From assembly GCA_902806415.1 (NCBI GenBank), contig CADCWN010000015.1, positions 57,229 through 121,228 on the forward strand: DNA of 64,000 nt, in the 5' to 3' direction. Origin of the DNA: an uncultured Thermomicrobiales bacterium (GTDB lineage: Bacteria; Chloroflexota; Chloroflexia; Thermomicrobiales; CADCWN01). This document shows, in pieces, positions 4,404 to 55,232 of this stretch. The position numbers and the translations under genes were made by a program. The notes beneath the pieces are model-generated. The model was not told the DNA's origin and searched no databases. It was given only the letters and a program-made list of their open reading frames with translations. Within the stretch, counting starts at the first letter, position 1, and every line of letters begins with the position of its first letter.

Positions 4404-5243
4404 TCACCGACGCACGCGCGTTTCCATCCATTCGACGCCGAAGCGCACGAGATCGGCCGCCGGAAGGAGCGCCGACGGTGCCGCGCCGACAAGTCCGCTG
4501 CTGCCGCGACCGGTCGCGAGATAATCCCGCCCGATCGCCGCGAAGGGGTCGTCCTCGCCGAAGTCGGCGATCCCGTTCGTCGTGTCGTACTCCTCGATCT
4601 CCACCCACACCCGCTCTCCATCGCGCAGAATCGGCATCAGGTAGCGATCGATCCGCTTATCGGGGATATTCGCCAGATGTTCCGCGTGGTGCAGCAGCGT
4701 GATATTCGAGAGGATCGGTCCGAGCAGGAGCACCGCACCATCCGCCGCGCAGAGCCGCGCTGGCGGCGAGTCGGGGCCGTGGCCGTATTGCCAGGAATGG
4801 CGCGCGGTGAGCGCTTCGGCACCCGCGCCCACGGCGACGAACGATGCGAGGGGATGGTCGCTGCGCCGGGCGCCCGGCCAGGTACGCAGATACTCAGCGA
4901 GGACGCTCATCTCGTGATGATCGGCTGGAGAAGTGGCTGGGTCAAACGGCGGACACTCGGCCAGCCAGGCCGCCCGTTGCGCCTCTGACCACCCTGCCAT
5001 CTCGTAAGGATTCCCCTCCCAACTCGCCAGCATCAGCAGCGTCCCGCGCGGCGTCAGCAGATCGAGGAGCGCATCGAGGACGACACGCGGGCCGCCCACG
5101 ACCCAGCCGATCGCCCGCACCGAGGCGTGGAGCATCACCACGCCGCCCTCGCGCACACCCAGCGCGCGGAGGTCGGCGATCAGTTGACTGCGCGTTACGT
5201 GCTGCGCGGCGACGGGGTCTGCTGCGCCCATAGTTGTCCTCAC
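4404..5243 (-). CDS. aminoglycoside N(3)-acetyltransferase family (AAC(3)/Antibiotic_NAT-like)
   Basis: …LRALGVREGGVVMLHASVRAIGWVVGGPRVVLDALLDLLTPRGTLLMLASW…LLLGPILSNITLLHHAEH… resembles AAC(3)-type enzymes. The start is GTG 5243 or ATG 5231. Confidence 0.8.
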   Translation of the reverse strand: MRTTMGAADPVAAQHVTRSQLIADLRALGVREGGVVMLHASVRAIGWVVGGPRVVLDALLDLLTPRGTLLMLASWEGNPYEMAGWSEAQRAAWLAECPPFDPATSPADHHEMSVLAEYLRTWPGARRSDHPLASFVAVGAGAEALTARHSWQYGHGPDSPPARLCAADGAVLLLGPILSNITLLHHAEHLANIPDKRIDRYLMPILRDGERVWVEIEEYDTTNGIADFGEDDPFAAIGRDYLATGRGSSGLVGAAPSALLPAADLVRFGVEWMETRVRR

Positions 5244-5433
5244 AACGAGCCGACCGCCTCAATTCTAGCAGTTTCTTTCGAGCACACGATATGATAGGGG
5301 GGAAAAGTCGGTGCTGTCTCAATTCGTCACTCGTCATTCACTTGGAAAGCTGACCCGGCGCACCCGGCGGCGTATACTTCCCGGCAGCACGATCGATAGC
5401 CTCGTTCACAACGCAAGGCAAGGGCAAGGCACC

Positions 5434-6024
5434 ATGAACACTTCCCTGCGGATGACCTCCGCCGACCTGGCGAATTTCCCCGATGACGGCAAGCGACGCG
5501 AGATTATCGACGGGGAGTTGTACGTGTCGACGCAGCCGCACTGGTATCACCAAGTCCTCTGCGCCCGCTTCGGCCAATTTCTGGGCGAGTGGGGCGATGA
5601 GTCCGGTCGCGGTCAGGTCGCCGTCGCGCCGGGGCTGATCTTCGCGGAGGACGACGATGTCGCGCCGGACGTTGTCTGGGCCAGCCGGGAGCGGCTGGCG
5701 CGGATTCTCGAAGGCGGGAAGCTCTATGCCGCGCCCGAGTTGGTGATCGAGGTGCTGTCGCCGGGTCGGAAGAATATCGCGCGCGACCGCGAGACGAAGC
5801 TGAAACTGTATGCCCGCCGCGATGCCGACGAATACTGGATCGCCGACTGGCCTCGACACGCCGTCGAGATCTACCTCCGCGCGGGCGACACCCTCACGCT
5901 CGCCGAGACACTCGGCCCCGGCGACACACTGACGACGCCACTCCTGCCTGGCTTCGCCGTGGCCCTCGATCGGCTCTTCGCGGGGTTCCCCTTCGCCGAG
6001 GCCGTGGGGGAGGGCGAAGGATAA
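5434..6024 (+). CDS. Uma2 family (DUF820) endonuclease
   Basis: …DDGKRREIIDGELYVSTQPHWYHQ…APDVVWAS…APELVIEVLSPG…DRETKLKLYARRDADEYWIAD… I trimmed to ATG 5434. The upstream 41 codons of the track ORF translate a heptamer-repeat half site. Confidence 0.85.
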   Translation: MNTSLRMTSADLANFPDDGKRREIIDGELYVSTQPHWYHQVLCARFGQFLGEWGDESGRGQVAVAPGLIFAEDDDVAPDVVWASRERLARILEGGKLYAAPELVIEVLSPGRKNIARDRETKLKLYARRDADEYWIADWPRHAVEIYLRAGDTLTLAETLGPGDTLTTPLLPGFAVALDRLFAGFPFAEAVGEGEG

Positions 6025-6388
6025 GAGAAGCGGCCCTCACCCCCGCCGCCTCCGGATGAACCGGATTTATCCTGCTGCAAGTCAGGACAATATGCGGGCG
6101 GCACCCCCTCTCCTGATTCCAGGAGAGGAGGGAAGCCATTGCGGGTCTTTTGGCCGACGGATATGTCGCAGTCATCCCCACCAACACGTTCGACCACTTC
6201 CAGAAGCATTCGCCAGGCACCGTCCCTCCCTTGAAATGGGGGTATCCAATCTCATGCGCCGTCACCGCGCCGCCGAGTACAATACCCCCTTTGGCGGGCG
6301 ACCACGCCCACAGCAGCAGTTCGCCACATCGCCATCGCCAGGAGCGCCGCAGGGCGCGCTCGATAGCCACTCATGGGGGAAGAAGCTG

Positions 6389-7444
6389 ATGGCCCGGACC
6401 GCATCCCAGACCGTGCTCGTCACCGGCGGCGCGGGGTTCCTGGGGATTAACTTGCTGCGCTACCTGCACGCGCGCGGTTACGACCTCGTGTCGCTCGACA
6501 TGGCCGATTTCGATTACCCGGATATGCGCGACAAAGTGTTCGTCGTCAAGGGCGACATCCGCGACCGCGCGACCGTCGAGCGCGCGATGAAGGGGGTCGA
6601 TCTCGTCGTCCACGGGGCGGCGGCGCTGCCGCTCTATTCCGAGGAGGATATCTACACCACCGATGTGGTCGGCACCCGGCTGATCCTCGACGTCGCGCGG
6701 CAGCACGGCATCGCGCGCGCCGTCCACGTCTCCTCCACCGCCGTCTACGGGATTCCCGACCATCACCCGCTGGTCGAGGAGGACAAATTGGACGGCGTCG
6801 GCCCCTACGGCAAGGCGAAGATCGAGGCGGAGGAGGTCTGCCTCGAATTCCGCAAGAAGGGGCTGGTCGTGCCGATCATCCGCCCCAAGTCGTTCGTCGG
6901 CCCGGAGCGGCTGGGCGTCTTCGCCCTCTTCTACGATTGGGCGCTTAATGGGCGCAACTTCCCGATGATCGGCAACGGCAAGAACCGCTACCAGTTCCTC
7001 GACGTGGAAGACCTCTGCGCGGCGATTCACCTCTGTTTGACCCTCCCCGCCGAGCGGGCCAACGACACCTTCAACATCGGCGCGGAGGAATTCACCACGA
7101 TGGCCGAGGACTACCAGGCGGTCCTCGACAAGGCGGGCTTCGGCAAGCGGATCATCGGCTTCCCTGCCGAACCGGCGATCTGGGGCCTGCGCTTCCTCGA
7201 ACTGCTGCGCATCTCGCCGCTCTACAAATGGGTCTACGAGACGGCCTCGAAAGATTCGTTCGTCTCGATCGACAAGGCGAAGCGCCAGCTCGGCTTCAAG
7301 CCGCAGTATTCCAATAAGGATGCGCTGCTCCGCAACTTCGCCTGGTATATCGAGCACCGCGATCAGTTCGCCAGCCAGTCCGGGGTCTCCCACCGCGTCC
7401 CCTGGAAACAGGGCGCGCTCGGGCTGCTGAAGCGGGCCTTCTAG
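6389..7444 (+). CDS. NAD-dependent epimerase/dehydratase family protein
   Basis: MARTASQTVLVTGGAGFLGINLLRYL…YGKAKIEAE… shows a Rossmann GxxGxxG and a YxxxK. I trimmed to ATG 6389 (GGGGGA upstream). The first 111 codons of the track ORF are read-through. Confidence 0.9.
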   Translation: MARTASQTVLVTGGAGFLGINLLRYLHARGYDLVSLDMADFDYPDMRDKVFVVKGDIRDRATVERAMKGVDLVVHGAAALPLYSEEDIYTTDVVGTRLILDVARQHGIARAVHVSSTAVYGIPDHHPLVEEDKLDGVGPYGKAKIEAEEVCLEFRKKGLVVPIIRPKSFVGPERLGVFALFYDWALNGRNFPMIGNGKNRYQFLDVEDLCAAIHLCLTLPAERANDTFNIGAEEFTTMAEDYQAVLDKAGFGKRIIGFPAEPAIWGLRFLELLRISPLYKWVYETASKDSFVSIDKAKRQLGFKPQYSNKDALLRNFAWYIEHRDQFASQSGVSHRVPWKQGALGLLKRAF

Positions 7445-7471
7445 GCAACTATTACCCGACAAGATCACAAT

Positions 7472-7505
7472 ATCGGGGCGATCATAGTAGTATGATCGCC
7501 CCGAT
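7472..7505. terminator. 15-bp perfect hairpin, bidirectional terminator candidate
   Basis: ATCGGGGCGATCATA, GTAG loop, TATGATCGCCCCGAT. It lies between the convergent epimerase (+) and the 7546..8010 ORF (-). Confidence 0.6.
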
Positions 7506-7545
7506 CCATAGGAAGGTTATCAGCGACAAAGCAAATGATTTGCCG

Positions 7546-8010
7546 CTATGGCTCTACAAACCACTCAGGTTGGTGAATGAATTCCGGCACATCGATCTCA
7601 AAGTCGGTCGCAATGATGTAGTCGTCGCCATTGATCAGGAATAGCACCGGCATATCCGGCGTATCCTCGACCTGATCATTACCGAGGTACCGCGCACCGA
7701 TAGTGTCGAGAAAGCTGATTACCTTGCGATACAGCGGCGTGGGAAACCAGCCCAGCACGAAAGACTTACTCGCGGTCCACTCATAAAAAATGCGCGTATC
7801 TCCTGGCACGTTGAGGAAAAGGTACGGATTCTCGTGATAGCGCGTCTCGGCACGCACCAGATCGATGATCTCGCTGGTCTGTTGCTGCGTCAGCGGTGTG
7901 GTGCAAAGAATTTGGTGGCTTGGATGGTACGCCCATAGTAGTGGATGATCCTCAATAAACATCCAGTCGATTATTTCGCCAGCGTGCTGCGACAAACACG
8001 CCATGTACAC
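7546..8010 (-). CDS. hypothetical protein (AT-richer orphan)
   Basis: 154-aa track ORF with protein-like composition (…NPYLFLNVPGDTRIFYEWTASKSFVLGWFPTPLYRKVISFLD…). Hand counts of two 60-nt lines gave 29/60 and 31/60 G+C. I recognise no family. Confidence 0.55.
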   Translation of the reverse strand: MYMACLSQHAGEIIDWMFIEDHPLLWAYHPSHQILCTTPLTQQQTSEIIDLVRAETRYHENPYLFLNVPGDTRIFYEWTASKSFVLGWFPTPLYRKVISFLDTIGARYLGNDQVEDTPDMPVLFLINGDDYIIATDFEIDVPEFIHQPEWFVEP

Positions 8011-8076
8011 AGTATGAGCAAGTACTGTTACGTTCTTCTTTGCTTCTTCACCGGGCTGTAGCTTCCAGGGTTTGTT

Positions 8077-8238
8077 CTACTGTCTCGCTTCGAGATAGCG
8101 CGGGTGCTCCCACCACGGATAGAAGCGCACTGTATAGCGCGCTTCACGTTCAGGCAGGGAAACGTGCGCGCTGACGAATTCAGCATCAATTTGTGGGTAG
8201 AACCGATCCGCAACCTCGCAATAGTTCAATACTGGCAT
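8077..8238 (-). CDS. hypothetical 53-aa protein
   Basis: MPVLNYCEVADRFYPQIDAEFVSAHVSLPEREARYTVRFYPWWEHPRYLEARQ. Its ATG overlaps the upstream stop (TGATG). It could instead be a frameshifted tail of 8238..8699. Confidence 0.35.
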   Translation of the reverse strand: MPVLNYCEVADRFYPQIDAEFVSAHVSLPEREARYTVRFYPWWEHPRYLEARQ

Positions 8239-8699
8239 CAGATGGTATGCTCCGCCGGCTCGAAGTTGATCGGATGTCCGGCAAAGCGGCACTCGAGATG
8301 GATCTGCGCGTGCTGCGGACCGGCCCAGCGGCAGCGGGCGCAGTGGCTCACGCCGTAGAAATGGTCGAAGAGGGGCTGGCTCATCGTCGTCAGATGGCGG
8401 TCGAGCGCGAGGCGCTTGTACTCCTCGCGCACCGCAGCGTCGAGAGCGCGCGGCAAGCACTGCGGGTAGTGAAGCTGATAAGTCTCGCCGCTGGCACTGT
8501 CCTCCAGCGTCAGTATCTCGACCTCCAAACCACCTTCGATCGCAGCCGCCCGCCCGTTGAGGCGCAGCACCCCCCAATCGACCCCCGCCATCGCCGAGAG
8601 GTACTGGAGGAGCCGCGCCTTATCGATCGTGCGCGTCGCCAACCGCTCCAAGAGCGGGCGTACGCGCTGCACCACATCCTGCGTCGCTCGGTATGTCAT
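8238..8699 (-). CDS. hypothetical Cys/His-containing protein
   Basis: 153-aa track ORF with GGAGGGG upstream of the ATG. It contains …HYPQC…SHCARCRWAGPQHAQIHLECRFAGH…, a possible metal-binding cluster. I recognise no family. Confidence 0.55.
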   Translation of the reverse strand: MTYRATQDVVQRVRPLLERLATRTIDKARLLQYLSAMAGVDWGVLRLNGRAAAIEGGLEVEILTLEDSASGETYQLHYPQCLPRALDAAVREEYKRLALDRHLTTMSQPLFDHFYGVSHCARCRWAGPQHAQIHLECRFAGHPINFEPAEHTI

Positions 8700-8711
8700 G
8701 GCCCCTCCGGG

Positions 8712-8815
8712 GAGTGACGAGTGACGAGTGACGAGTGACGAATGGGAACGTGACGGAGGTCATACATCTTGAGAGTCCTCCCGCGAACCTTATTCGTCAC
8801 TCGTCATTCATCATT
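8712..8815. repeat. heptamer-array hairpin element (locus B)
   Basis: (GAGTGAC)x4 at 8712..8739. The inverse arm ATTCGTCACTCGTCATTCATCATT lies at 8792..8815. The thiM stop (8804..8806) lies inside the right arm. Confidence 0.85.
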
Positions 8816-9607
8816 AATCTTGACTTCTGCAACACCCCGCTGGCCGAGGGCGGCGACCTCATCGATCAAGCGAGCGCGGAAGGTGCCGGGGCCGGGGTCG
8901 CCAGCGGCGGCGCGCTCGGCGGCGAGGCCGTAGGTGCCGAGGGCCAGCGCGGCCTGGGTCACGGGATCACCACCGGCGGCCAGGAAGATGCCGATCGCGG
9001 CGGTCGCCATGCAGCCGGAGCCGGTGATCCGCCCGAGGAGCGGGTGACCGTTGTGGACGGCGAGCGTTTGTCCACCGCCGACAACGATATCGATCGCACC
9101 GGTGACCGCGACCGCGACCCCGAAGCGCGCCGCCGCAGCCCCGGCGACGGCGCGCGGATCTTCCCCGCCGACCGCATCGACGCCGCACATCTGGCCTGAG
9201 CCGACGAGCGCGCCGATCTCGCCGCGATTACCACGCAGCACCGTGATCGGCAGTTCGGAGAGGAGGCGCAGGGCGCTCTCGGTGCGGAACGCCGTCGCGC
9301 CCGCGCCGACCGGATCGAGGACGATCGGCACCCCGCGCGCGGCGGCGGCGCGCCCCGCCAGCAGCATCGCCTCGATCTCGGCCCGCGAGAGGGTGCCGAT
9401 GTTCAGCGCCAACGCCCCGGCCAGCGCCGCCATCTCGGCGGCCTCCTCGGGCGCGTAGGCCATCACCGGCGACGCGCCGAAGGCGAGTGTGACGTTGGCA
9501 ACATCGTTGGTGACGACGATATTGGTGATGTGGTGGATCAGCGGCACCCGCTCGGCCACGCGCGCCAGGGCCGCCGCCGCTTCAGTGCTGAAATCGATGC
9601 CACTCAT
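8804..9607 (-). CDS. thiM: hydroxyethylthiazole kinase
   Basis: …PLIHHITNIVVTNDVANVTLAFGASPVMA…IVLDPVGAGATAFR…TGSGCMATAAIG… is ThiM-like over its full length. Confidence 0.9.
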   Translation of the reverse strand: MSGIDFSTEAAAALARVAERVPLIHHITNIVVTNDVANVTLAFGASPVMAYAPEEAAEMAALAGALALNIGTLSRAEIEAMLLAGRAAAARGVPIVLDPVGAGATAFRTESALRLLSELPITVLRGNRGEIGALVGSGQMCGVDAVGGEDPRAVAGAAAARFGVAVAVTGAIDIVVGGGQTLAVHNGHPLLGRITGSGCMATAAIGIFLAAGGDPVTQAALALGTYGLAAERAAAGDPGPGTFRARLIDEVAALGQRGVAEVKINDE

Positions 9608-9754
9608 CGGCTGCTCCCATCATGACTGCGCGACAAGGTTTACTGAGCATTGATAACAGGTGACGGCGGGGCGGGCAACTGGAGGTCGTTCAAGGTAGGC
9701 GGTTTCAACCGCCTGTTACAGCGCCGCTTTCCCCTACTGCCCGCCTCGCCCGCC

Positions 9755-12448
9755 CTACGCCTCCACGCTCCCGCTCACACTCCGCGCCTCATCCTTCGCC
9801 CCGGACACTTTTTGCTTCAACTCATAGAGCTTCGTGATCGCCTCCAGCGGCGAGAGCGATTCGACATCGAGGGCGCGCAGTTCCTCCACCACCGGGTCGG
9901 GCGCGCCGAAGAGGGAGAGTTGGAACTGGGGCGGCGCGGCGACGGGGGCGGCGCGGCGACCACCGGTGCGGCGCGGGGCGCGCTCGCCGCCACCTTCGAG
10001 GTCGGCCAGGATCTCGCCCGCGCGACGGACGACCGCGCGCGGCATCCCGGCCAGACCGGCGACGTGGATCCCGTAGGAACGGTCGGCCCCGCCGGGGACG
10101 ACGCGCCGCAGGAAGACGACCCGATCGCCCTCTTCGAGCACATCCATCCGCTCGTTCTGCACGCGCGGCAGGATGTCGGCCAGCGCGGTCAACTCGTGAT
10201 AGTGCGTGGCGAAGAGGGTGCGGCAGCCGAGGCGCGGCGTGTTGTGGATGTACTCGCTGACGGCCCGCGCGATCGAGAGGCCGTCGTAGGTGCTGGTGCC
10301 GCGCCCGATCTCGTCGAGGACGATCAGGCTGCGGCGCGTGGCCGAGTTGAGGATCGCGGCCATCTCCAGCATCTCGACCATGAAGGTGCTCTGCCCCGCC
10401 GCCAGGTCATCCTGCGCGCCGATCCGGGTGAAGATCCGATCGACCAGGCCGATCTCGGCGCGGTCGGCGGGGACGAACGCGCCGATCTGCGCCAGCAGGA
10501 CGATCAACGCGACTTGCCGGAGATAGGTGCTCTTGCCGGCCATATTGGGGCCGGTGATGATCACGACCTGGCGCTCGGCGGTGTCGAGATTGGTGTCGTT
10601 CGGCACAAACCCCTCGCTGGCGACCGCCAGCGATGCCTCCACCGTCGGGTGCCGCCCGCCCTCGATGCAGACGATCGGCTCCGGGTCGTCGTTGAGCGTC
10701 GGGCGGACGTAACGGCGCTCGACCGCGACCGTCGCCAGCGCGGCGAAGACATCCAGGTGGGCCAGCGCCTCCGCCGCGCGCATGACATACGGCGCCGCGC
10801 CCGCGACCCGGCCCACCACCTCGCGATAGATCGTCCCCTCCAGCGCCGCGATCCGCTCCTCCGCGCCGCTGACCAGCGTCTCGTACTCTTTCAGCTCGGG
10901 CGTGATGTAGCGCTCCGCGCCGACGAGGGTCTGCTTGCGGATGTAATCGTCGGGGATGGCGTCGCGGTTGGTGTGGCTGATTTCCAGGTAGTAACCGAAG
11001 ACCTTGTTGTAGCCGACCTTCAGCGAGCGGATGCCGGTGCGTTCGCGCTCCGTCCGCTCCAGCCCGGCGATATATGCCTTCGCCTCGCGGGCTTTCTCGC
11101 GCAGGTCGTCGAGGTCGGGCGCGAACCCGGTGCGGATCGACGGCACCTCGGGGCCGAGCGCCGCCGGGGGATCGTCGGCGATCGCCGCGCCGATTGTCGC
11201 CACCAGGTCGTCGAGGCGCGCGGCGCGCAGCGGCGGCAGCCAGGGCGCGAGCGGCCCGCCTGCCCCATCCTCACTAGGAACATCGGCGATCGCCGCCAGC
11301 AGATCGGGCAGGCGGCCGAGCGAGCGCGCCAGGGTGGCGAGATCGCGCGGGGTCGCCGCGCCGGTGACCGCCCGATTGATCAGCCGCTCCAGATCGCCGA
11401 CCCCGCCGAGCAGGGGCGTGATCCGGGCGCGCAGGAGGGCGTCGCGCGCGCAGAGCGCCACCGCCTCCTGCCGTTCAATCAGCGGCGCGAGCTCGACCAG
11501 CGGCTGCCCGAGCCAGCGGCGCAGGAGCCGCCCGCCCATCGGCGTCCTGGTGCGGTCGATCGTCGCCAGCAGTGAGCCGCCGCGCCCGCCGCGACTCCCC
11601 TCGGTCAGTTCGAGGTTGCGCCTGGTTGCGGCGTCCAGGGGCATATAGGCGTCGGTGCTGTAACCGTGCAACTCGGTGATCTGGGCCAGGCCGTCGAGTT
11701 GCGTCGCGGCCAGGTATTGCAGCAGGGCACCCGCCGCACGGATCGCCAGCGGCTGCCCGCCGATCCCGAAGCCGTCGAGCGCGCCGACCGCGAAATGGTC
11801 GCGCAAGGCGTCCTCGGCGCGGTCGAGTCGCCACTCGCGCCCGTCGGTGCGGCTGGTGTAGGCACCGCTCGGCAGCCAGGGCGGCACGTTCCCATCCGGG
11901 TCGTCATCCTTCGTCAGCAGGATCTCCGCCGGGCCGAGCCGCAACAGTTCCTGCGCAATCGCCCCCTCGATCGCTTCGGTGTCGGCGCGGGTGAGTTGCG
12001 TGGCGGCGAACTCGCCGGTGGTGATGTCGGCGTAGGCGACACCGGCGCGCGCGCCCTCGACCAGCACGGCGGCGAGGTAATTGTTGGCGTGACCGGGGAG
12101 CATACTCGGCTCGACGACGGTGCCGGGGGTGACGACGCGCGTGACGCGGCGCTCGACGATCTCCCGCCCCTTCGTCGGCTGGCCGATCTGCTCGCAGACG
12201 GCGACCTTGTACCCGGCAGCGATCAGCTTGGCGATGTGGGCCTCGGCGGAGTGGTACGGCACCCCGGCCAGTGGCAGCTTCTGCCCCCGCCCCATCTCGC
12301 GCGCGGTGAGGGTGATGTCGAGGATGCGCGCGGCGATCTTGGCATCCTCCTCGAACATCTCGTAAAAGTCGCCGAGACGGAAGAAGAGGAGGACATCGGG
12401 GTACTGGCGCTTGATCGCCAGGTATTGCTGCCGGATCGGCGTCGTCAT
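9755..12448 (-). CDS. mutS: DNA mismatch repair protein MutS
   Basis: 897 aa. MTTPIRQQYLAIKRQYPDVLLFFRLGDFYEMFEEDA…, Walker A in IITGPNMAGKSTYLRQ, then …STFMVEMLE…DEIGRGTSTYDG…. Confidence 0.97.
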   Translation of the reverse strand: MTTPIRQQYLAIKRQYPDVLLFFRLGDFYEMFEEDAKIAARILDITLTAREMGRGQKLPLAGVPYHSAEAHIAKLIAAGYKVAVCEQIGQPTKGREIVERRVTRVVTPGTVVEPSMLPGHANNYLAAVLVEGARAGVAYADITTGEFAATQLTRADTEAIEGAIAQELLRLGPAEILLTKDDDPDGNVPPWLPSGAYTSRTDGREWRLDRAEDALRDHFAVGALDGFGIGGQPLAIRAAGALLQYLAATQLDGLAQITELHGYSTDAYMPLDAATRRNLELTEGSRGGRGGSLLATIDRTRTPMGGRLLRRWLGQPLVELAPLIERQEAVALCARDALLRARITPLLGGVGDLERLINRAVTGAATPRDLATLARSLGRLPDLLAAIADVPSEDGAGGPLAPWLPPLRAARLDDLVATIGAAIADDPPAALGPEVPSIRTGFAPDLDDLREKAREAKAYIAGLERTERERTGIRSLKVGYNKVFGYYLEISHTNRDAIPDDYIRKQTLVGAERYITPELKEYETLVSGAEERIAALEGTIYREVVGRVAGAAPYVMRAAEALAHLDVFAALATVAVERRYVRPTLNDDPEPIVCIEGGRHPTVEASLAVASEGFVPNDTNLDTAERQVVIITGPNMAGKSTYLRQVALIVLLAQIGAFVPADRAEIGLVDRIFTRIGAQDDLAAGQSTFMVEMLEMAAILNSATRRSLIVLDEIGRGTSTYDGLSIARAVSEYIHNTPRLGCRTLFATHYHELTALADILPRVQNERMDVLEEGDRVVFLRRVVPGGADRSYGIHVAGLAGMPRAVVRRAGEILADLEGGGERAPRRTGGRRAAPVAAPPQFQLSLFGAPDPVVEELRALDVESLSPLEAITKLYELKQKVSGAKDEARSVSGSVEA

Positions 12449-16273: not shown

Positions 16274-16410
16274 GAACGCGGAAGTCGGAGCGCGGAGCGC
16301 GGAATAAGAAGCGAGGACCGGGCGGGGGGCACATGTTGTGCCGCCCCGCCGCATTATTCGGCAGGGCCATCACCCCTTGTTCCGCGTTCCGACTTCCGAC
16401 TTCCGCGTTC
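16274..16410. repeat. heptamer-array hairpin element (locus C) with nested GC hairpin
   Basis: The arms 16274..16307 and 16377..16410 are 29/34 complementary by my alignment. An inner hairpin GGCGGGGGGCACA/TGTGCCGCCCCGCC lies at 16321..16350. The element starts 4 nt after the sodA stop. Confidence 0.85.
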
Positions 16411-16489
16411 CACAGCCCCTCTGGCACCATCCTTGCGCTGCCTGCGGGGAAGACCTCGTCGTTCTAGCAAAGACCAGAAGGAGGATCTT

Positions 16490-22637: not shown

Positions 22638-22658
22638 CCCTCTCTCCGGTTTATTGTT

Positions 22659-22823
22659 GGCAGTCGGCAGTCGGCTGGTAGTCGTCGGTCGTCGGTCGTC
22701 AGTCCTCAGAAGAGCGTCCGTAGTCCGTAGAAGGGTAGCTGACCTGCGGCCCTACTCGACCACTGGCCCACTGGCTCACTCGCACCACCCTCTGACGACT
22801 GACGACTGCCGACCGACGACTCG
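22659..22823. repeat. composite heptamer-array element (locus D)
   Basis: RGTCGTC-type array, AGTCCTC-AGAAGAG, AGTCCGT-AGAAGGG, TGGCCCA/CTGGCTC units, then a complementary CTGACGA array. It fills the whole gap between the carbamoyltransferase start and the upp stop. Confidence 0.9.
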
Positions 22824-23495
22824 CTACTCGCCCGTGTGGAAGACACGATCCCCCGCGTCGCCGAGGCCGGGGCAAATATATCCCTGCTCGTTCAATTCGC
22901 GGTCGAGCGCCGCGACATAGATCTCTACGTCGGGATGTGCCTCGGTCAGCTGCGCCACGCCATAGGGCGCGGCGACGATGCCGATATAGGTGATCCGCTC
23001 CGCGCCGACCTCTTTCACCAGATCCACCGCGCTCACCGCCGAGCCACCGGTCGCCAGCATCGGGTCGACGACGATGCAATGCGCGGCCTGCCCGCTCCGC
23101 ATCGCACGGTTGTAATACGGGACCGGGCGTAGCGTCTCCTCGTCGCGGTAGAGGCCGAGGTGCCAGACGCGCGCCTCCGGCAGCAGGCGCAGCAGCGGCT
23201 CGACCATCGCCAACCCGGCGCGCATGATCGGCACGATCGCGATCGGTTGCGCCACTTTCACCCCGATCATCGGCTCCAGCGGCGTCACGATCGGTCGCTC
23301 GGCCAGTGCCAACCCGGCCAGCGCCTCATAACCGACGAGGGTCGTCAACTCGCCGAGCAACTCGCGGAAGCGCGACGGTGCCGTCTCGGTGGCACGCAGC
23401 AGAGTCAGTTGCACCGCGATCAGCGGGTGCGTCGCCACATGCAGGCGCGGCTGGCGCAACGCCTCCGCGCGCGTCGGCTGCTCCCGACCGGCCAT
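22824..23495 (-). CDS. upp: uracil phosphoribosyltransferase
   Basis: …HPLIAVQLTLLR…IVPIMRAGLAM…VDPMLATGGSAV…YICPGLGDAGDR… I trimmed from the 534-aa track ORF to ATG 23495. Confidence 0.92.
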   Translation of the reverse strand: MAGREQPTRAEALRQPRLHVATHPLIAVQLTLLRATETAPSRFRELLGELTTLVGYEALAGLALAERPIVTPLEPMIGVKVAQPIAIVPIMRAGLAMVEPLLRLLPEARVWHLGLYRDEETLRPVPYYNRAMRSGQAAHCIVVDPMLATGGSAVSAVDLVKEVGAERITYIGIVAAPYGVAQLTEAHPDVEIYVAALDRELNEQGYICPGLGDAGDRVFHTGE

Positions 23496-38793: not shown

Positions 38794-39897
38794 CTAGATT
38801 AAGTCGAAATTCGGGCGGACGTCGAGGGTGAAATCGGCCAGGCGACCGACGGGGAGGCGATAGGCCGCCGCCGCGCCGATCATCGCGGCGTTGTCGGTGC
38901 AGAGGGCGAGCGGCGGATAGCGCAGCGGCAGATCGAGCCGCCGGCCCAGGCGCTCGCGCAGCAGGCCGTTCGCCGCGACGCCGCCCGCCAGCAGCACCAT
39001 CGTCGCGCCGGACTCGCGCGCCGCGCGGGCGGTCTTCTCCACCAGCGGCTCGATGATCGCCTCCTGATACGCCGCCGCCAGGTCGGCGACCGGCAAGGTT
39101 GGCCCGAACTTCGGGGGCGTGTAGGTCGGGAACGGCGCGGCGGGGGTCGGCTGCTGCCCCTTGCTCTTGCCCTTGCGACCGCCCGTCGGACCGGTCAGGT
39201 GGTGCTTCTCGGTGGCGCGCAGCAGCGCCGTCTTCACGCCGCTGTAGCTGAAGTCGAGCGAATCGCCGAGCCAGGCGCGCGGCAGGCGATAGCGGTCGGC
39301 CTGCCCGGCAGCGGCGGCGCGCTGGATCGCTGGGCCGCCCGGATAGCCAAGGCCGAGAATCCGCGCGCCCTTGTCGAACGCCTCGCCCGCTGCGTCGTCG
39401 GTCGTCCGCCCGAGGAGGCGATAGTGGCCGTGGCCGAGCATCAGCAGCAGTTCGGTATGCCCGCCGGAGACGATCAGGCAGACGAGCGGGAAGGAAGGCG
39501 GCGGCGTAGCCTGATCTTCACCCGCCTGGAGGAGCCAGTTGGCGTAGATATGCCCCTCCAGGTGGTTAACCGGGATCAGCGGCAGCCCGCGCGACCAGGC
39601 GACCGCCTTGGCCCAATTCACCCCCACCAACAGCGCGCCCGCCAGCCCCGGCCCCTCGGTCACGGCGATCGCGTCGATCCCGTCGAGGGTCAGCCCGGCA
39701 TCGGCCAGCGCCCGCTCCACGACCGGGTTGATCGCCGTGATATGCCCGCGCGCCGCCAACTCCGGCACCACCCCGCCATAAGCGCGGTGCAGCTCGATCT
39801 GCGACGCCACGACGTTCGCCAGCACCCGCCGCCCGTCGCGAACGATCGCCGCCGCCGTCTCGTCGCACGATGTCTCGATGGCCAGGATGGTCGGCAT
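38794..39897 (-). CDS. tsaD: tRNA N6-adenosine threonylcarbamoyltransferase TsaD
   Basis: MPTILAIETSCDETAAAIV…VNHLEGHIYAN…LIVSGGHTELL…. Confidence 0.95.
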   Translation of the reverse strand: MPTILAIETSCDETAAAIVRDGRRVLANVVASQIELHRAYGGVVPELAARGHITAINPVVERALADAGLTLDGIDAIAVTEGPGLAGALLVGVNWAKAVAWSRGLPLIPVNHLEGHIYANWLLQAGEDQATPPPSFPLVCLIVSGGHTELLLMLGHGHYRLLGRTTDDAAGEAFDKGARILGLGYPGGPAIQRAAAAGQADRYRLPRAWLGDSLDFSYSGVKTALLRATEKHHLTGPTGGRKGKSKGQQPTPAAPFPTYTPPKFGPTLPVADLAAAYQEAIIEPLVEKTARAARESGATMVLLAGGVAANGLLRERLGRRLDLPLRYPPLALCTDNAAMIGAAAAYRLPVGRLADFTLDVRPNFDLI

Positions 39898-39908
39898 ATC
39901 AGTACTCC

Positions 39909-39996
39909 AGTCCGTAGTCCGTAGAAGGTTCGTAGGTATGCTAATGCTTTACTTTTCTGCAGTCCCTCTACGGACTACGGACTACGGACTACGGAC
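39909..39996. repeat. heptamer-array hairpin element (locus E)
   Basis: AGTCCGT AGTCCGT AGAAGGT, an AT-rich loop, then CCTCTAC (GGACTAC)x3 GGAC. The rimI stop TAG (39982..39984) lies inside the right arm. Confidence 0.9.
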
Positions 39997-40593
39997 CGCC
40001 CCATTCGGCGAATCATGCCACCGCGCCAGCCTCAGGCCGAGGGTGGCGCGCAACCCGGCCAGGCTTTCGAGGGTCGGGCTTTCGTTGAGGGCTGGCGACC
40101 ACATGATGTGAGCGTCCTCGCCATTGTCGCTGTAATAACGCTTGCGGAGGCCCTGCCGCGTGAAACCGTACTTCTCGTAGAGCGCCAGCGCGCTGGCGTT
40201 GGAGACGCGCACCTCCAGCGTCACCCAGCGCGAGCGGCGGCGGATCGCCTCATCGATCATCGTCACGAAGAGGAGTTCGCCGAGCGACCGCCCGCGCTGC
40301 TCGGGCAGGACACCGATCGTGGTGATGTGCGCCTCGTCGAGCATATTCCACATCCCGCCGAAGCCGAGAATCGGCGGTTTCGCGGGGTCCGCGCGGCGCA
40401 CGAACGGCAACAGGTGCAGCCCGCCGCGCGGGCGCTCGTCCGGCACGCCCGTATGCGGCGGTCGCCAGCGCACGACGATGTAGTAGTTGTGCTCGGTGTC
40501 GCGCAGTTCGCGCCGATAGGCGCTGCTCGGCCAGGGGTTGGTGAAGCAGCGGCGCTCCACCTGGCTGACTTCCTGGACATCGTCTTGGGTCAT
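39982..40593 (-). CDS. rimI: ribosomal-protein-alanine N-acetyltransferase RimI-like GNAT
   Basis: MTQDDVQEVSQVERRCFTNPW…ITTIGVLPEQRGRSLGELLF…LEVRVSNASALALYEKYGF… The track ORF (to 40725) adds about 44 aa that translate repeat locus F. The start is set to ATG 40593, with GTG 40605 as an alternative. Confidence 0.8.
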   Translation of the reverse strand: MTQDDVQEVSQVERRCFTNPWPSSAYRRELRDTEHNYYIVVRWRPPHTGVPDERPRGGLHLLPFVRRADPAKPPILGFGGMWNMLDEAHITTIGVLPEQRGRSLGELLFVTMIDEAIRRRSRWVTLEVRVSNASALALYEKYGFTRQGLRKRYYSDNGEDAHIMWSPALNESPTLESLAGLRATLGLRLARWHDSPNGAVRSP

Positions 40594-40624
40594 CGGCTCG
40601 ATCACGAACGGCACGGCACGCCTC

Positions 40625-40700
40625 GGTAGATAGTCGGTAGTCGGTAGTCCGTAGAAGGGCGGCGACTCTGCTTCCCTATCCGCCCACTCGCCAGTGGCTA
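40625..40700. repeat. heptamer-array element (locus F)
   Basis: GGTAGAT AGTCGGT AGTCGGT AGTCCGT AGAAGGG CGGCGAC…CCCACTCGCCAGTGGC. It lies between the tsaB stop and the probable rimI start. Confidence 0.85.
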
Positions 40701-42247: not shown

Positions 42248-44323
42248 ATGGCAGCGAACCGAGCAATCACCGCCGACGATCTGTACGCGCTCCAATTCGT
42301 TGGCGACCCGCGCGTCTCGCCCGACGGGGCGCGCGTCGCCTTTGTCGTCACGGTGGCCGACCGGGAGCGCAACGACTATCGCTCGCGGATTTGGATCGTC
42401 CCGATCGATGGCAGCGCACCGCCGCGCCCGCTCACCGCCGGGCCGGGCAAGGACACCAGCCCGCGCTGGTCGCCCGACGGCCGGCGCATCGCCTTCCTGT
42501 CCGATCGCGAGCCGGCGACCTTGCCGGATGGCGTCGAGCGCGGCGAGAAGGCGAAGCCGCAAATCTGGACCCTCGATCTGGCCGGCGGCGAGGCGCGGCA
42601 AGTCACCGCCCTACGGCAGGGCACGAGCGATCCCGCCTGGTCGCCCGATGGCGCGCGGCTCGCCTGCACCTCGCAGGTCGGCGGGCCGGACGACGAGCCG
42701 ATCGACACCGGCAAATCGGCGACCGAGCGGGCGCGGGAGCGCGCCGACCGGGTCCGCGAGATCACCACCCTGAAGTACAAGTTCGACGGCCTCGGCTACC
42801 TCGACGGCAAGCGGCGGCACCTCTTCGTCGCCGATGTACCAGCCCCCGGCGCGTCGCCCGCCGCCGCGCACCAGCTCACCGACGGCGACCAGAACGACAG
42901 CCAGCCGGCGTGGTCGCCGGACGGGACGCGGCTCGCGTTCGTCTCCTATCGCGAGCCGGACGAGGATGTAACCTTCCGATCCGACATCTGGACGCTGACC
43001 CTCGCCGACGGCGTGTGCCGCAAGCTGACCGGCGGGGGCGGCGCATCGACCGCCCCTGCCTGGTCGCCCGATGGCGGGCAGATCGCCTATCTGGGCCATC
43101 AGGAGGGCGAGGGCGCGGCGGCGATGACCCGCCTCTGGACCGTCGGGACGGGCGGCGACGGGCCGCCGGTCTGCCGCAGCGCCGACTTCGATCGCGACCT
43201 CGGCAATAGCACCCTCACCGACCAGACCTTGCCGGGCGGCCAGGAAGGGCCGGTCTGGTCGCTCGATGGCCGCGCGATCCTCGCCCTGGTCGGCGACGGC
43301 GGGGCGACGGGGCTGCGGCGCTTCGGGCTCGACGGTAGCGAGCCGGAGGTCGTGGTCTGCGGCGAGCGGGTTGTGACTGCCTTCGCGACTGCGGGCGGGG
43401 GCGCGCGGCTGGTCTTCGCCGCGACCGACCCCGCCACACCCGCCGAACTCTTCCTACTGGATGGGGAAGGCGACGAGCGGGCGCTGACGGCCTGCAATGC
43501 CGCCCTGCTGCGCGAGCGCGCGGTCGCCCTGCCCGAGTCGTTCCGCTTCAGCGGCGCGCGGGGCGACGCGATCGATGGCTGGCTCGTGCGCCCGCTCGGC
43601 GCGGCGGCGGGCGCGGCGGTGCCGCTGGTCGTGGCGATCCACGGCGGGCCGCACGCGCAGTACGGCTTCGCCTTCTTCCACGAGTTCCAGATCCTGGCCG
43701 GGAAGGGCTACGCGGTCTTCTACTGTAACCCGCACGGCGGCACCGGGCGCGGCGACGCCTTCGCCAAGGCGATCCTCCGCGACTGGGGCGCGCTCGCGAT
43801 GGCTGACGTGATGGCCGGGCTCGACGCGGCCCTCGCGCGCGGCGGCTGCGACCCGGCGCGGCTCGGCGTCACCGGCGGCTCGTATGGTGGGTTCCTGACC
43901 AACTGGATCACCAGCCACACGACGCGCTTCGCCGCCGCCGTGACGCAACGGTCCTATTGCAACGCCCTCGGCTACTTCGGCGTGGATGACATCGGCGCGA
44001 TCAGCGATGTGGCCGAGTTGGGCGGCCATCCCTGGGAAGTCCCCGAGCGTTATCTCGCCCTCTCCCCGATTCTGCACGTCGGCAACGTCACCACGCCGAC
44101 CCTGATCGAGCACCAGGCCGAGGACTATCGCTGCCCACTCAGCCAGGCCGAGCAGTGGTACGCCGCCCTGAAGAAGCGCGGCGTCCCGACCAAGCTCCTG
44201 ATTTATCCCAATGAGAGTCACGGGATGTCGCGCAACGGCAAGCCGCGCCACCGGATCGAGCGCCTGATGCACAACAGCGCCTGGTTCGATCAGTGGCTCG
44301 GGGGGAGTAATCGTGAGTCGTGA
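42248..44323 (+). CDS. S9 family serine peptidase with N-terminal beta-propeller
   Basis: Repeated …SPRWSPDG.R.AF… propeller motifs. The catalytic region is …GVTGGSYGGFLTNW… I trimmed to ATG 42248. The stop lies inside repeat locus G. Confidence 0.9.
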   Translation: MAANRAITADDLYALQFVGDPRVSPDGARVAFVVTVADRERNDYRSRIWIVPIDGSAPPRPLTAGPGKDTSPRWSPDGRRIAFLSDREPATLPDGVERGEKAKPQIWTLDLAGGEARQVTALRQGTSDPAWSPDGARLACTSQVGGPDDEPIDTGKSATERARERADRVREITTLKYKFDGLGYLDGKRRHLFVADVPAPGASPAAAHQLTDGDQNDSQPAWSPDGTRLAFVSYREPDEDVTFRSDIWTLTLADGVCRKLTGGGGASTAPAWSPDGGQIAYLGHQEGEGAAAMTRLWTVGTGGDGPPVCRSADFDRDLGNSTLTDQTLPGGQEGPVWSLDGRAILALVGDGGATGLRRFGLDGSEPEVVVCGERVVTAFATAGGGARLVFAATDPATPAELFLLDGEGDERALTACNAALLRERAVALPESFRFSGARGDAIDGWLVRPLGAAAGAAVPLVVAIHGGPHAQYGFAFFHEFQILAGKGYAVFYCNPHGGTGRGDAFAKAILRDWGALAMADVMAGLDAALARGGCDPARLGVTGGSYGGFLTNWITSHTTRFAAAVTQRSYCNALGYFGVDDIGAISDVAELGGHPWEVPERYLALSPILHVGNVTTPTLIEHQAEDYRCPLSQAEQWYAALKKRGVPTKLLIYPNESHGMSRNGKPRHRIERLMHNSAWFDQWLGGSNRES

Positions 44324-44427
44324 GTCGTGAGTCGTGAGGGAGGCGTTGCTGGAAAAAGGGCGCCCGGCTTCAGCAAATCTTCTCGCGATTCGTGACCCAC
44401 GACTCACGACTCACGACTCACGACTCG
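44312..44427. repeat. heptamer-array hairpin element (locus G)
   Basis: (CGTGAGT)x3.9 at 44312..44338 and the complementary (CACGACT)x4 at 44398..44425, separated by a 59-nt loop. Confidence 0.9.
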
Positions 44428-44679
44428 TCCGGCCACAACAGCAGCGACAACGCCGCCACGACCAGCACGATGAGGGTCACAATCGCCAGCGTCAGCACTC
44501 TGCCCTCCCCGACTGAGCATCCCCAGAGCTTGTGCGCCAGTGGGTGTCGACGCTGGCGTATGAGCCCCAAATGTTCATCACCAAGCGGCAGCGCCGCGCG
44601 GGGTGAAGTATAGTCAGCATTGGCTCACGCTATCGGGGGTGCCATTCGTCCGTCGCACTATCGGCATCGAGGGATCACT

Positions 44680-49316: not shown

Positions 49317-49332
49317 TCCTCGGCTTCAATTT

Positions 49333-49406
49333 GAATGACGAGTGATGGGTGAAGTACGAAGTACGGGCTGGCACTGGCCCACTGGCCCATTCGTCATTCG
49401 TCGTTA
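49333..49406. repeat. heptamer-array element (locus H)
   Basis: GAATGAC GAGTGAT GGGTGAA GTACGAA GTACGGG CTGGCAC TGGCCCA CTGGCCC ATTCGTC ATTCGTC. GAATGACGA (49333..49341) pairs with TCGTCATTC (49391..49399). Confidence 0.85.
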
Positions 49407-49568
49407 ATTCCGCTTCGCGCCACCATGTTCGTGTACCTCGGCGGGTAGGATACCGTACTGGTTGTATCCGGTCACGGCGTCGGCGTGGGAGTCTTGCGCG
49501 CCGAGGCATAGTTCGAGGTCAAGTGTGCCGGATGGTGCGCCGCCATCGACCGCCCAGCCATAGGAAAT

Positions 49569-53996: not shown

Positions 53997-54013
53997 GGGG
54001 CCGCCTTCGGGGG

Positions 54014-54160
54014 AGTCGTCGGTCGTCAGTCGTCAGTCGCCAGAAGAAAATGTGCAGGCCGCAGCCCGTAGAAGGGCGGCTTCATGCTCACACTCGGCAC
54101 TCGGCACTCGGCACTTCTCTCTGACGATTGACGATTGACGACCGACGACTGACGACTGCC
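54014..54160. repeat. composite heptamer-array element (locus I)
   Basis: AGTCGTC GGTCGTC AGTCGTC AGTCGCC AGAAGAA … AGCCCGT AGAAGGG … (CACTCGG)x3 … GATTGAC GATTGAC GACCGAC GACTGAC GACTGCC. The module order matches locus D. Confidence 0.9.
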
Positions 54161-54164
54161 AACT

Positions 54165-55232
54165 CTACCCCGGCAACCAACTCCCATACTTCGGATGCTC
54201 CGGACCGATCGGCAGGGTGACCGGCTGGCCGGTCTCTGCTGAGTGGTACATCGCGGTGATCAGTTCGAGCGAGGCGCGGGCGTCGGCGAGGGTGACGGGC
54301 AGTTCGCCGCCCTCGGCGAGCGCGGTGGCAAAACGGTGAAACTGCCCGGCGAAGCTCTCCGGCAGCGGGGTGAAGTTCGCCAGTGCCTCCTCGATCCGGG
54401 TGGCGAGTTCGGGCGAGTCGCCGGTGATCTCCCAGGGATCGCCCGAATTGGTGTAGGGACGGGTGTTGCTCTCGGCGGAGAGGTTCTGGAAGGTGAAGCG
54501 ATGGCGACTGATCTCCGCCGCCGAGCCGAGGGTCACGCCGAGGGAGGCCAGCGCGCCACTCGCCAACTCCAACGAGACCGTCGCGCAATCCTCGACCTCG
54601 ATCCGATTCACGCGCGTCGCCGTGCGCGCGAAGACACTCCGCACCGGGCCGAGGACGTAGGAGAGGATGTCGTGGCCGTGGATGGCGTGGCCGAGCAGCG
54701 CGCCGCCGAGTTCGGTCGCCCACTTGCCGCGCCAGGGGACATCATAGTATGCAGCCCGCCGCCGCCAGGCCGTCTCGACCGTCGCCTGATAGGGCGTCCC
54801 GGTCAGCCCCGCCGCTTGCAGGAATTTGAGACGCTGGAGCCCATGCCCGAAGCGGTACTGGAAGATCGGCATGATCCGCCTGCCTGACGCCGCCTCGGCC
54901 CGTGCGAGCTCGTCCACGTGGCGCAACGAACCGACGAGCGGTTTCTCGCAGATCGCGTGCTTCCCCGCCGCCAGGACTTCGTTGATCTGGGCGAAGTGCA
55001 GATGGGGCGGCGTGCAGATGTCGATCACGTCGAGATCGTCCAGCCGGCAGAGCGCGCCGAAGTCGTTGACGACGCGCGGCACGCCGTGCTCCGCGGCGAG
55101 CGCCCGCGCCTTCGGCTCGTCCAGGTCGCAGATCGTGGTCAGGTCGAACTGCGCCGGCAGGGTCTTGTAGGCGCGGACGTGCGACGCGCCGATCCCGCAG
55201 CCGACGACCGCGACGCGCAGGGGGGCGGCCAT
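54165..55232 (-). CDS. Gfo/Idh/MocA family oxidoreductase
   Basis: MAAPLRVAVVGCGIGASHVRAY…AICEKPL… I trimmed to ATG 55232 (AAGGAGG upstream). Confidence 0.9.
   Translation of the reverse strand: MAAPLRVAVVGCGIGASHVRAYKTLPAQFDLTTICDLDEPKARALAAEHGVPRVVNDFGALCRLDDLDVIDICTPPHLHFAQINEVLAAGKHAICEKPLVGSLRHVDELARAEAASGRRIMPIFQYRFGHGLQRLKFLQAAGLTGTPYQATVETAWRRRAAYYDVPWRGKWATELGGALLGHAIHGHDILSYVLGPVRSVFARTATRVNRIEVEDCATVSLELASGALASLGVTLGSAAEISRHRFTFQNLSAESNTRPYTNSGDPWEITGDSPELATRIEEALANFTPLPESFAGQFHRFATALAEGGELPVTLADARASLELITAMYHSAETGQPVTLPIGPEHPKYGSWLPG

Follow-up and report, generated by a model that had tools for sequence, protein, structure and literature searches.

The present analysis concerns a locus in a stretch of 64,000 nucleotides of contig CADCWN010000015.1 from an uncultured Thermomicrobiales bacterium; this whole stretch is hereafter called the window. 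At the locus, mutS, thiM and three open reading frames (ORF1, ORF2 and ORF3) follow each other in this order on the minus strand, and an epimerase gene converges on them from the plus strand (Table 1). A preliminary description, made from the letters of the window, had presented the three ORFs of 153, 53 and 154 aa as one orphan module. The coordinates of the three ORFs are correct, but the ORFs belong to two genes, since 7546..8238 is one frame with a TAG codon. ORF2 and ORF3 are the two parts of this second gene, which codes for a protein of a 229-aa family (hereafter the 229-aa gene). The interval holds two mutually unrelated minus-strand genes, ORF1 and the 229-aa gene. The locus is probably a case of ordinary gain and decay, in which a native gene for a predicted zinc protein is followed by a foreign-looking accessory gene that was acquired and then disabled by the TAG.

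Translation of the ORF2–ORF3 region gives a single frame of 231 codons with a lone internal stop (...YLEARQ, stop, NKPWKLQ...) and no frameshift. Full-length homologues have 225–236 aa, their N-termini match ORF2, and the two pieces of the window align with them collinearly from end to end. The window was compared with a matching metagenome contig (L001, ENA ERZ1300058 NODE_7), with a contig of the Logan assembly of run ERR3870372 (L002), and with a sister strain showing 97–98% nucleotide identity to the window (L010, JGI 3300041964). The window, L001 and L002 all have the TAG. The stop is aligned with Gln in the homologues, and L010 has CAG at this codon, indicating that the window carries a C-to-T nonsense mutation. 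The change from CAG to TAG at codon 54 would truncate the window copy. Gene callers predict a 138-aa product for the C-terminal piece, starting at a later Met, and for this reason an exact look-up of the 154-aa product of ORF3 found it not on record. The 229-aa gene of the window strain is probably a recent pseudogene.

If the TAG were an assembly error or an artefact of a minority allele, the 229-aa gene would be intact and functional in the real genome. The difference is of a single base, the rest of the frame is open with no frameshift, and all three records with the TAG may come from one sample. However, the same base is found in the window, in the ENA assembly and in the independent Logan assembly. 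The window copy also has the replacements R7C and H16Q and no synonymous differences from L010, and relatives have lost the gene or carry it disrupted through independent events. We regard such an artefact as very unlikely.

Alternatively, the gene may work despite the TAG, by read-through or suppression, or as two polypeptides (53 aa and a re-initiated product of 138–154 aa). The downstream frame is still open, and the 138-aa product is predicted by the gene callers. On the other hand, no Shine–Dalgarno-like sequence is located before the internal GTG or ATG starts, and the C-terminal piece would be without the invariant motifs RFxHIDA and YPWWEHP. Moreover, R7 and H15 are already lost, and no suppressor or other tRNA is present in the window, which is only 64 kb of the genome. 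A working gene of this kind is highly improbable. Decoding of the TAG as pyrrolysine or by a suppressor was set aside, as the window has no tRNA and other conserved residues are damaged.

The ratio of non-synonymous to synonymous substitution rates (dN/dS) is 0.09–0.21 among the copies of the 229-aa gene in related contigs (the window included, with the TAG codon skipped), which indicates that the gene truly codes for a protein and is constrained. When the window is compared with L010, this gene shows 0 synonymous and 5–6 non-synonymous differences (C7R, Q16H, stop54Q, Q118R and D188G from the window to L010, and one at the junction of an insertion sequence, IS), whereas the total for ORF1, thiM and the epimerase gene is 21 synonymous and 8 non-synonymous (Fisher p = 0.002–0.005). 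The 229-aa gene has been under relaxed selection since its disruption, as judged from small numbers and a low-quality L010 assembly. The near-invariant residues R7 and H15 (family numbering) are kept in L010 and replaced in the window (R7C and H16Q). In L010, the gene is split by an IS of 1.49 kb, which encodes a DDE_5 transposase and is located at L010 6361–7848 (about 8001–8010 of the window). The IS ends in inverted repeats (CTGGTCATT...AATGACCAG) and has duplicated about 10 bp of its target.

Contigs with common thiM–ORF1...epimerase synteny were compared for the content of the slot that separates ORF1 from the epimerase gene. A gene of 229 or 236 aa is present in the slot of the window, L010, L006/L008/L046, L043 and L044. 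In L045 and L047, the slot is empty (316-nt spacer). L042 has a DUF433 gene with a weak DUF5615-like neighbour, which is below the Pfam cutoff, and L037 has a DUF433-like ORF, which is named by its resemblance to L042 alone. Of the 229-aa gene, L040 has only a remnant of the 5' part (MPPVNDCGVRHRFAHVDGEFVSASV), after which come MarR and cupin genes. The flanks of L044 and L045 are 98.3% and 99.3% identical, and 749 nt of L044 are replaced by 45 nt in L045. These 749 nt span the 3'-terminal six or so codons of ORF1, the complete 229-aa gene and the next 32 nt, and no flanking repeats were found at the borders of the indel.

In this lineage, a nonsense mutation (the window), an IS insertion, a deletion and two replacements have removed or inactivated the gene. 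By the simplest history, an ancestor of the sub-lineage gained it once, and about five independent losses or inactivations followed. The site of the gain would be the space that separates ORF1 from the convergent epimerase gene. The repeated loss, IS interruption and replacement in relatives indicate that the 229-aa gene is dispensable.

The TGATG overlap of stop and start, as given in the preliminary description, is present, and one base is common to the ORF1 stop codon and the ATG that starts the 229-aa gene. At the same junction in relatives, an ATGA overlap (L006, L044 and L046) or an 8-nt gap (L043) is found. The TGATG overlap suggests translational coupling of ORF1 and the 229-aa gene. 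A scan of 7300–9800 for promoter and terminator consensus sequences gave nothing relevant. As the start of the 229-aa gene overlaps or nearly abuts the stop of ORF1 and no separate promoter or terminator was identified, the gene probably relies on the transcription and translation of ORF1.

Table 1. Features of the locus (positions in the window).
Feature	Position	Strand	Remarks
NAD-dependent epimerase/dehydratase gene	6389..7444	+	Pfam Epimerase E = 1.8e-41; called in L001
Perfect 15-bp stem with 4-nt loop (7472-7486/7491-7505)	7472..7505		27 nt after epimerase stop
229-aa-family gene (ORF2+ORF3)	7546..8238	-	G+C 0.52, GC3 (G+C at third codon positions) 0.59
ORF3, 154 aa	7546..8010	-	C-terminal part of 229-aa gene
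ORF2, 53 aa	8077..8238	-	N-terminal part of 229-aa gene
In-frame TAG, codon 54	8077..8079	-	Derived from CAG by C-to-T
TGATG stop/start overlap	8236..8240	-	ORF1 stop overlaps 229-aa gene ATG by one base
ORF1, 153 aa, intact	8238..8699	-	GC3 0.84; dN/dS 0.14-0.22
Codons of predicted zinc ligands C120, C123, H134, C137	8289..8342	-	Conservation in ORF1 family
Shine-Dalgarno-like GGAGGGG	8702..8708	-	2 nt upstream of ORF1 ATG; read from sequence
Long hairpin between thiM and ORF1	8712..8813		Inverted heptamer arrays; -49 kcal/mol, z = -3.2
thiM (hydroxyethylthiazole kinase)	8804..9607	-	Pfam HK; GC3 0.85

The G+C content around the locus is 0.63–0.77. The low G+C content is confined to about 7450–8200 (0.50–0.54), and ORF1 (0.64–0.66) is like its surroundings. 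Therefore, the drop in G+C along the three ORFs in the preliminary description is real over the 229-aa gene and is not found over ORF1. In every carrier, GC3 of the 229-aa gene is 0.59–0.67, as compared with 0.82–0.87 for ORF1 and 0.85–0.93 for thiM. Across phyla, the G+C content of the gene is about 0.50–0.62 whatever the host, and it is below that of the flanks in 26 of the 29 loci. In a cyanobacterium of 47% G+C, the gene exceeds its flanks.

A profile search detected 235 members of the 229-aa family. Among 185,579 species (one genome per species), 24 have the gene, and they belong to at least 10 phyla (Chloroflexota, Armatimonadota, Planctomycetota, Gemmatimonadota, Acidobacteriota, Cyanobacteria, Myxococcota, Actinomycetota, Sumerlaeota and Bacteroidota). 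The finer groups of the carriers include Thermomicrobiales, Chloroflexia, Longimicrobiales, Sumerlaeales and Hymenobacteraceae, and one member is located on a scaffold labelled as a Leptolyngbya plasmid. The foreign composition, the patchy distribution and the presence or absence at the strain level fit a horizontally acquired accessory gene. As for signatures of mobility, no integrase, no repeats at the indel borders and no match in PLSDB were detected. Two further copies, in an Acidobacteriota metagenome-assembled genome (MAG) (L025, 4836–5657) and a Sumerlaeales MAG (L032, 2150–2841), are likewise divided into two ORFs, and these splits could be further decay or assembly errors.

The AlphaFold2 model of the homologue P0121, calculated with an alignment of 51 sequences, has a mean predicted local distance difference test score (pLDDT) of 93 and a predicted template modelling score (pTM) of 0.85. 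The model is mainly beta, and a variable alpha/beta insert is located at residues 112–196. R12, F13, H15, D17, Y39, W41, W42, E43, H44, W91, F93, H97, W101, D205, D211, F212 and H221 are invariant or nearly invariant in the family. The family motifs are RFxHIDA, YPWWEHP, HPLLW and DDYIIAxDFExDVPEFxHxPEW. According to a Foldseek search of the PDB with the model, no neighbour is below E = 0.17, and searches of Pfam and NCBIfam with all the members gave only noise. As near-invariant His, Asp, Glu, Arg and Trp residues are present on a mainly beta core, our guess is that the 229-aa protein may be a soluble metal- or ligand-binding enzyme.

No gene family in the neighbourhood of the 229-aa gene is common to different phyla. 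None of the Pfam families in the 90 flanking ORFs is found more than two times, and most of these ORFs are of the housekeeping type (Lon, His biosynthesis, DHPS, KAS and others). A sigma factor is encoded directly upstream of the gene in four of the 24 genomes, for which coincidence is possible. In three loci of related Armatimonadota (L024, L017 and L018), a group-3-like sigma factor follows a HATPase_c_2 anti-sigma kinase and precedes the 229-aa gene. In the Leptolyngbya plasmid scaffold (L026), an extracytoplasmic function (ECF) sigma factor with DUF6596 is located upstream of the gene. The upstream sigma factor is a weak lead at most.

Homologues of ORF1 were found in 399 clusters, nearly all of which are 145–166 aa long, with 56–87% identity. 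An exhaustive profile search of 1.84 billion representatives gave only 31 clusters at 50% identity, mostly fragments, indicating that the family is narrow and lineage-restricted. The only homologue with a named source is from a Thermomicrobiales MAG, and the members of the family clusters are all named 'hypothetical protein' in their sources. The local synteny of ORF1 includes thiM, mutS and the epimerase gene. In GCA_963851995.1, ORF1 adjoins thiM and the 229-aa gene is not there, and in other contexts ORF1 is solitary. An analysis of conserved neighbours of the ORF1 family gave no partner common to different clades. Motifs of the GGAG/GGTGG type are present in relatives upstream of ORF1 at the place equivalent to the Shine–Dalgarno-like sequence of the window. 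According to the host-like GC3, the thiM–ORF1 synteny with no 229-aa gene, and the narrow distribution of the family, ORF1 is a native, vertically inherited gene of a lineage of Thermomicrobiales-like Chloroflexota.

The N-terminal 42 residues of ORF1 (two helices) are almost invariant. Of the Cys and His residues that the preliminary description listed as a cluster, C120, C123, H134 and C137 are conserved in the family and the other histidines are not. No variation is seen at C120, C123 and C137, and almost none at H134. The distant members P0245, P0263 and P0270 have Cys at position 134, and an exchange between His and Cys is expected of a metal ligand. The site thus has the C-terminal pattern CxxC-x10-[H/C]xxC, in which the two ligand pairs are 10 residues apart, and it is predicted from the family alignment to bind zinc. 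The AlphaFold2 model of ORF1 has a mean pLDDT of 90, and the second ligand pair is located on a helix. A Foldseek search of the PDB with this model gave no significant neighbour. The search of 42 members of the family against Pfam and NCBIfam gave no family, and the best Pfam match was zf-POGZ (E = 0.04 in five of the 42). Searches of PDB sequences with the profiles of both the ORF1 and the 229-aa families gave only noise. The comparison of predicted structures that the preliminary description proposed has therefore yielded confident models of both families and no PDB neighbour. ORF1 would be small and cytoplasmic, with a helical hairpin that is nearly invariant at its N-terminus and a zinc site towards its C-terminus, and we infer that its role is most likely that of a regulatory or a nucleic-acid- or protein-binding factor.

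The two repeats bracketing the ORFs were also compared among the contigs. The 111-nt region around the perfect 15-bp hairpin has a fold z-score of -4.9, and none of 200 shuffled sequences is as good. In L044, which has the 229-aa gene, and in L045, which does not have it, a hairpin of different sequence is found at the same distance from the epimerase stop codon. According to this positional conservation with or without cargo, the hairpin is a native feature of the epimerase gene, at its 3' end. It is a G+C-rich stem-loop, as is required of an intrinsic terminator, and probably terminates the convergent transcripts.

At the other end, the (GAGTGAC) array at 8712–8741 has 4.3 copies with 100% matches, and its inverted partner arm is located at 8792–8813. 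A hairpin is present in the thiM–ORF1 spacer of all the relatives (L001, L003, L006, L010, L037, L038, L040 and L043–L046). The repeat unit is GACGAGT in the window, L010 and L038, GTACGAA in L006, L037 and L043–L046, GAGTGCC in L040, and GTCGGTT/ATCAGTT in L003. As the unit is specific to the lineage and is found in paired arms, both arms must change in concert. The copy number of the arms differs between the window and L010. The array is one arm of a native intergenic hairpin, which belongs to a class of repeats found over the whole window.

The results above bear on the proposal of the preliminary description that 7445..8699 is one acquired module of three genes, of the toxin/immunity type or derived from a phage, and bounded by the hairpin and the array. 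In favour of this proposal, part of the interval has a low G+C content, the first and second ORFs overlap at stop and start, and no domains could be recognised. A toxin–antitoxin-like pair of DUF433 and DUF5615 in the slot of L042 shows that small mobile modules land there. However, ORF2 and ORF3 are one gene, and ORF1 is host-like in composition and syntenic in relatives where the 229-aa gene is absent. The hairpin and the array lie where they were described, but they are not borders of a module, as hairpins are present at the same sites in relatives with or without the 229-aa gene. The synteny comparison revealed an indel as suspected, and it comprises the 229-aa gene and, of ORF1, only the last few codons. 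Horizontal acquisition is thus retained for the 229-aa gene, on the basis of its composition, patchiness and presence or absence, and not for ORF1.

The two families also occur independently. Of the 58 loci in which 700 nt or more follow ORF1, 53 have no 229-aa partner. A search of 3.5 kb around the 229-aa gene gave no ORF1 homologue in any of the 24 species genomes or in the metagenome locus L012. Therefore, the co-inheritance expected of a toxin–antitoxin or immunity pair was not observed. No toxin, antitoxin or immunity domain was detected by Pfam, NCBIfam and PADLOC in the proteins of the window and in 42 and 51 members of the ORF1 and 229-aa families, respectively. PADLOC gave a lone noise match (E = 0.038) with the 51 members of the 229-aa family, and the best match of the window ORFs in PHROGs is not significant (E of about 0.1). 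The absence of a recognisable family, stated in the preliminary description, is confirmed for all the ORFs by Pfam, NCBIfam, PADLOC and PHROGs. The ORFs are not orphans, as shown by the 399 clusters and 235 members described above.

No relative was found by Foldseek against BFVD, by tblastn against INPHARED and PLSDB, or by a scan of IMG/VR, which together with PADLOC and PHROGs speaks against an origin from a toxin/immunity system or a phage. The 64-kb window has no tRNA genes, and the genes that Pfam annotates up to 10 kb away in L001 include no integrase. The neighbours of the 229-aa family elsewhere are of the housekeeping type, and no enrichment indicating association with defence islands was observed. 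According to the available tests, the 229-aa protein is not a toxin or a defence protein, and a single acquired three-gene module is extremely improbable.

A different link between the two genes has been considered. ORF1 and the 229-aa protein may be a functional pair in this lineage, for example a zinc-binding regulator or chaperone and its client enzyme. The junction is close in four diverged carriers (dS of ORF1 about 0.3–0.8), with an overlap in three and the 8-nt gap in L043, and the cassette is always located at this single site. Elsewhere, the position of the 229-aa gene after a sigma factor in four of the 24 genomes hints at regulator-linked expression. However, the constraint on ORF1 is alike with or without the 229-aa partner, ORF1 is alone in most loci, the 229-aa gene has no ORF1-like neighbour outside the lineage, and ORF1 stays intact where the partner is repeatedly lost. 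A functional pair is unlikely.

A broader proposal joins the two proteins as structurally new families. Here the 229-aa protein would be a mobile metalloenzyme with His, Asp and Glu ligands and a new fold, which is conditionally costly, and ORF1 would be a lineage-specific zinc-dependent regulator coupled to its expression. If this were true, the repeated independent loss of the 229-aa gene would reflect a conditionally costly activity. This combination, based on models, is decidedly unlikely.

Gain and decay of a foreign-looking gene beside a native gene thus remains the probable explanation, and the following points weigh against it. The TAG rests on the assemblies of the window, L001 and L002, which are probably derived from one sample. 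The L010 assembly is error-rich, with many single-base indels, and some of the counted strain differences could be errors. Four diverged carriers have retained the close junction between ORF1 and the 229-aa gene, which would allow the two proteins to be functionally linked in the lineage. The hairpin after the epimerase gene has no U-tract, and the consensus scan of 7300..9800 gave no terminator-like site.

The locus resembles a strain-variable slot for accessory genes (genomic islet), in which one intergenic site has different cargo among close relatives. As in genomic islets, the cargo has an atypical G+C content and a patchy distribution, and it is inactivated by nonsense mutation, IS insertion and deletion. 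Unlike in genomic islets, the searches here gave neither an integrase nor a tRNA target nor direct repeats at the flanks, and the single-gene cassette is fused to the 3' end of the native ORF1, replacing its last six or so codons.

The site of ORF1 resembles those of small zinc-ribbon and zinc-knuckle proteins (CxxC...CxxC) in the two ligand pairs 10 residues apart and in the His/Cys exchange. ORF1 differs from these proteins in that it matches no curated zinc-finger family, its second ligand pair is located on a helix of the model, and its most conserved part is the N-terminal helical hairpin, which has no known counterpart. The arrangement of the two genes is like that of type II toxin–antitoxin operons, as two small genes are on the same strand and the second start overlaps the first stop. 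Unlike such operons, the partners are not co-inherited, neither of them has a known toxin or antitoxin domain, and the downstream gene codes for a 229-aa protein, which is found alone in other phyla.

These results correct an annotation trap, in which the gene callers and the preliminary description split one gene (53-aa and 138/154-aa ORFs) and joined its native neighbour to it as an orphan module. The locus is a clean small example of the turnover of accessory genes at one chromosomal slot in uncultured Chloroflexota of rock and soil. Two conserved, confidently modelled and uncharacterised families are flagged, one a lineage-restricted, predicted zinc protein and the other the product of a rare gene that appears to move between phyla. 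Current understanding is unchanged unless a function is found.

Heptamer hairpins are also located elsewhere in the window, at 22640–22840, 39895–40010, 40600–40700, 44295–44440, 49330–49420 and 54000–54175, and also at 16379–16411. These hairpins are intergenic, consist of inverted tandem arrays and have folding energies of -35 to -89 kcal/mol. Several of their spacers have the common motif CGTAGAAGG(G). Five perfect arrays of at least three copies are present at period 7 (GAGTGAC, AGTCGTC, AGTCCGT, TCGTGAG and CACTCGG), as compared with none at periods 6 or 8–12 and 0 in shuffled sequences.

The cyanobacterial short tandemly repeated repetitive (STRR) sequences are intergenic tandem repeats of heptamers. 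Like the TAACTGA and STRR repeats, the arrays of the window are perfect period-7 tandem arrays, which are intergenic, near start codons and variable in copy number among strains. They differ in that they are inverted pairs forming long hairpins, and in that the unit differs among relatives at one locus. TAACTGA heptamer repeats are found in Beggiatoaceae, cyanobacteria and Bacteroidetes (PMC4679880), and the units found here are different ones (GAGTGAC and others).

The flanks of the interval are native on both sides. thiM is the native upstream flank, and the epimerase gene, which is convergent with the 229-aa gene, is syntenic in relatives with 85–89% identity. An Rfam search of 5000–12000 gave no match; upstream of thiM (9607–9760), even an E threshold of 1 revealed neither a thiamine pyrophosphate (TPP) riboswitch nor a member of another Rfam family. 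Across the 1,450 nt compared, the window differs from L001 by a single synonymous base. The base at 8445 of the window is T, and it is C in L001 and L002; the difference is synonymous in ORF1, and it indicates that the window is not byte-identical to L001 or L002. Just upstream of the epimerase gene, at 5311–6024 of the plus strand, a gene for a putative restriction endonuclease of the Uma2 family is present (Pfam E = 2.4e-29), and the G+C content dips to 0.59 in the stretch holding this gene.

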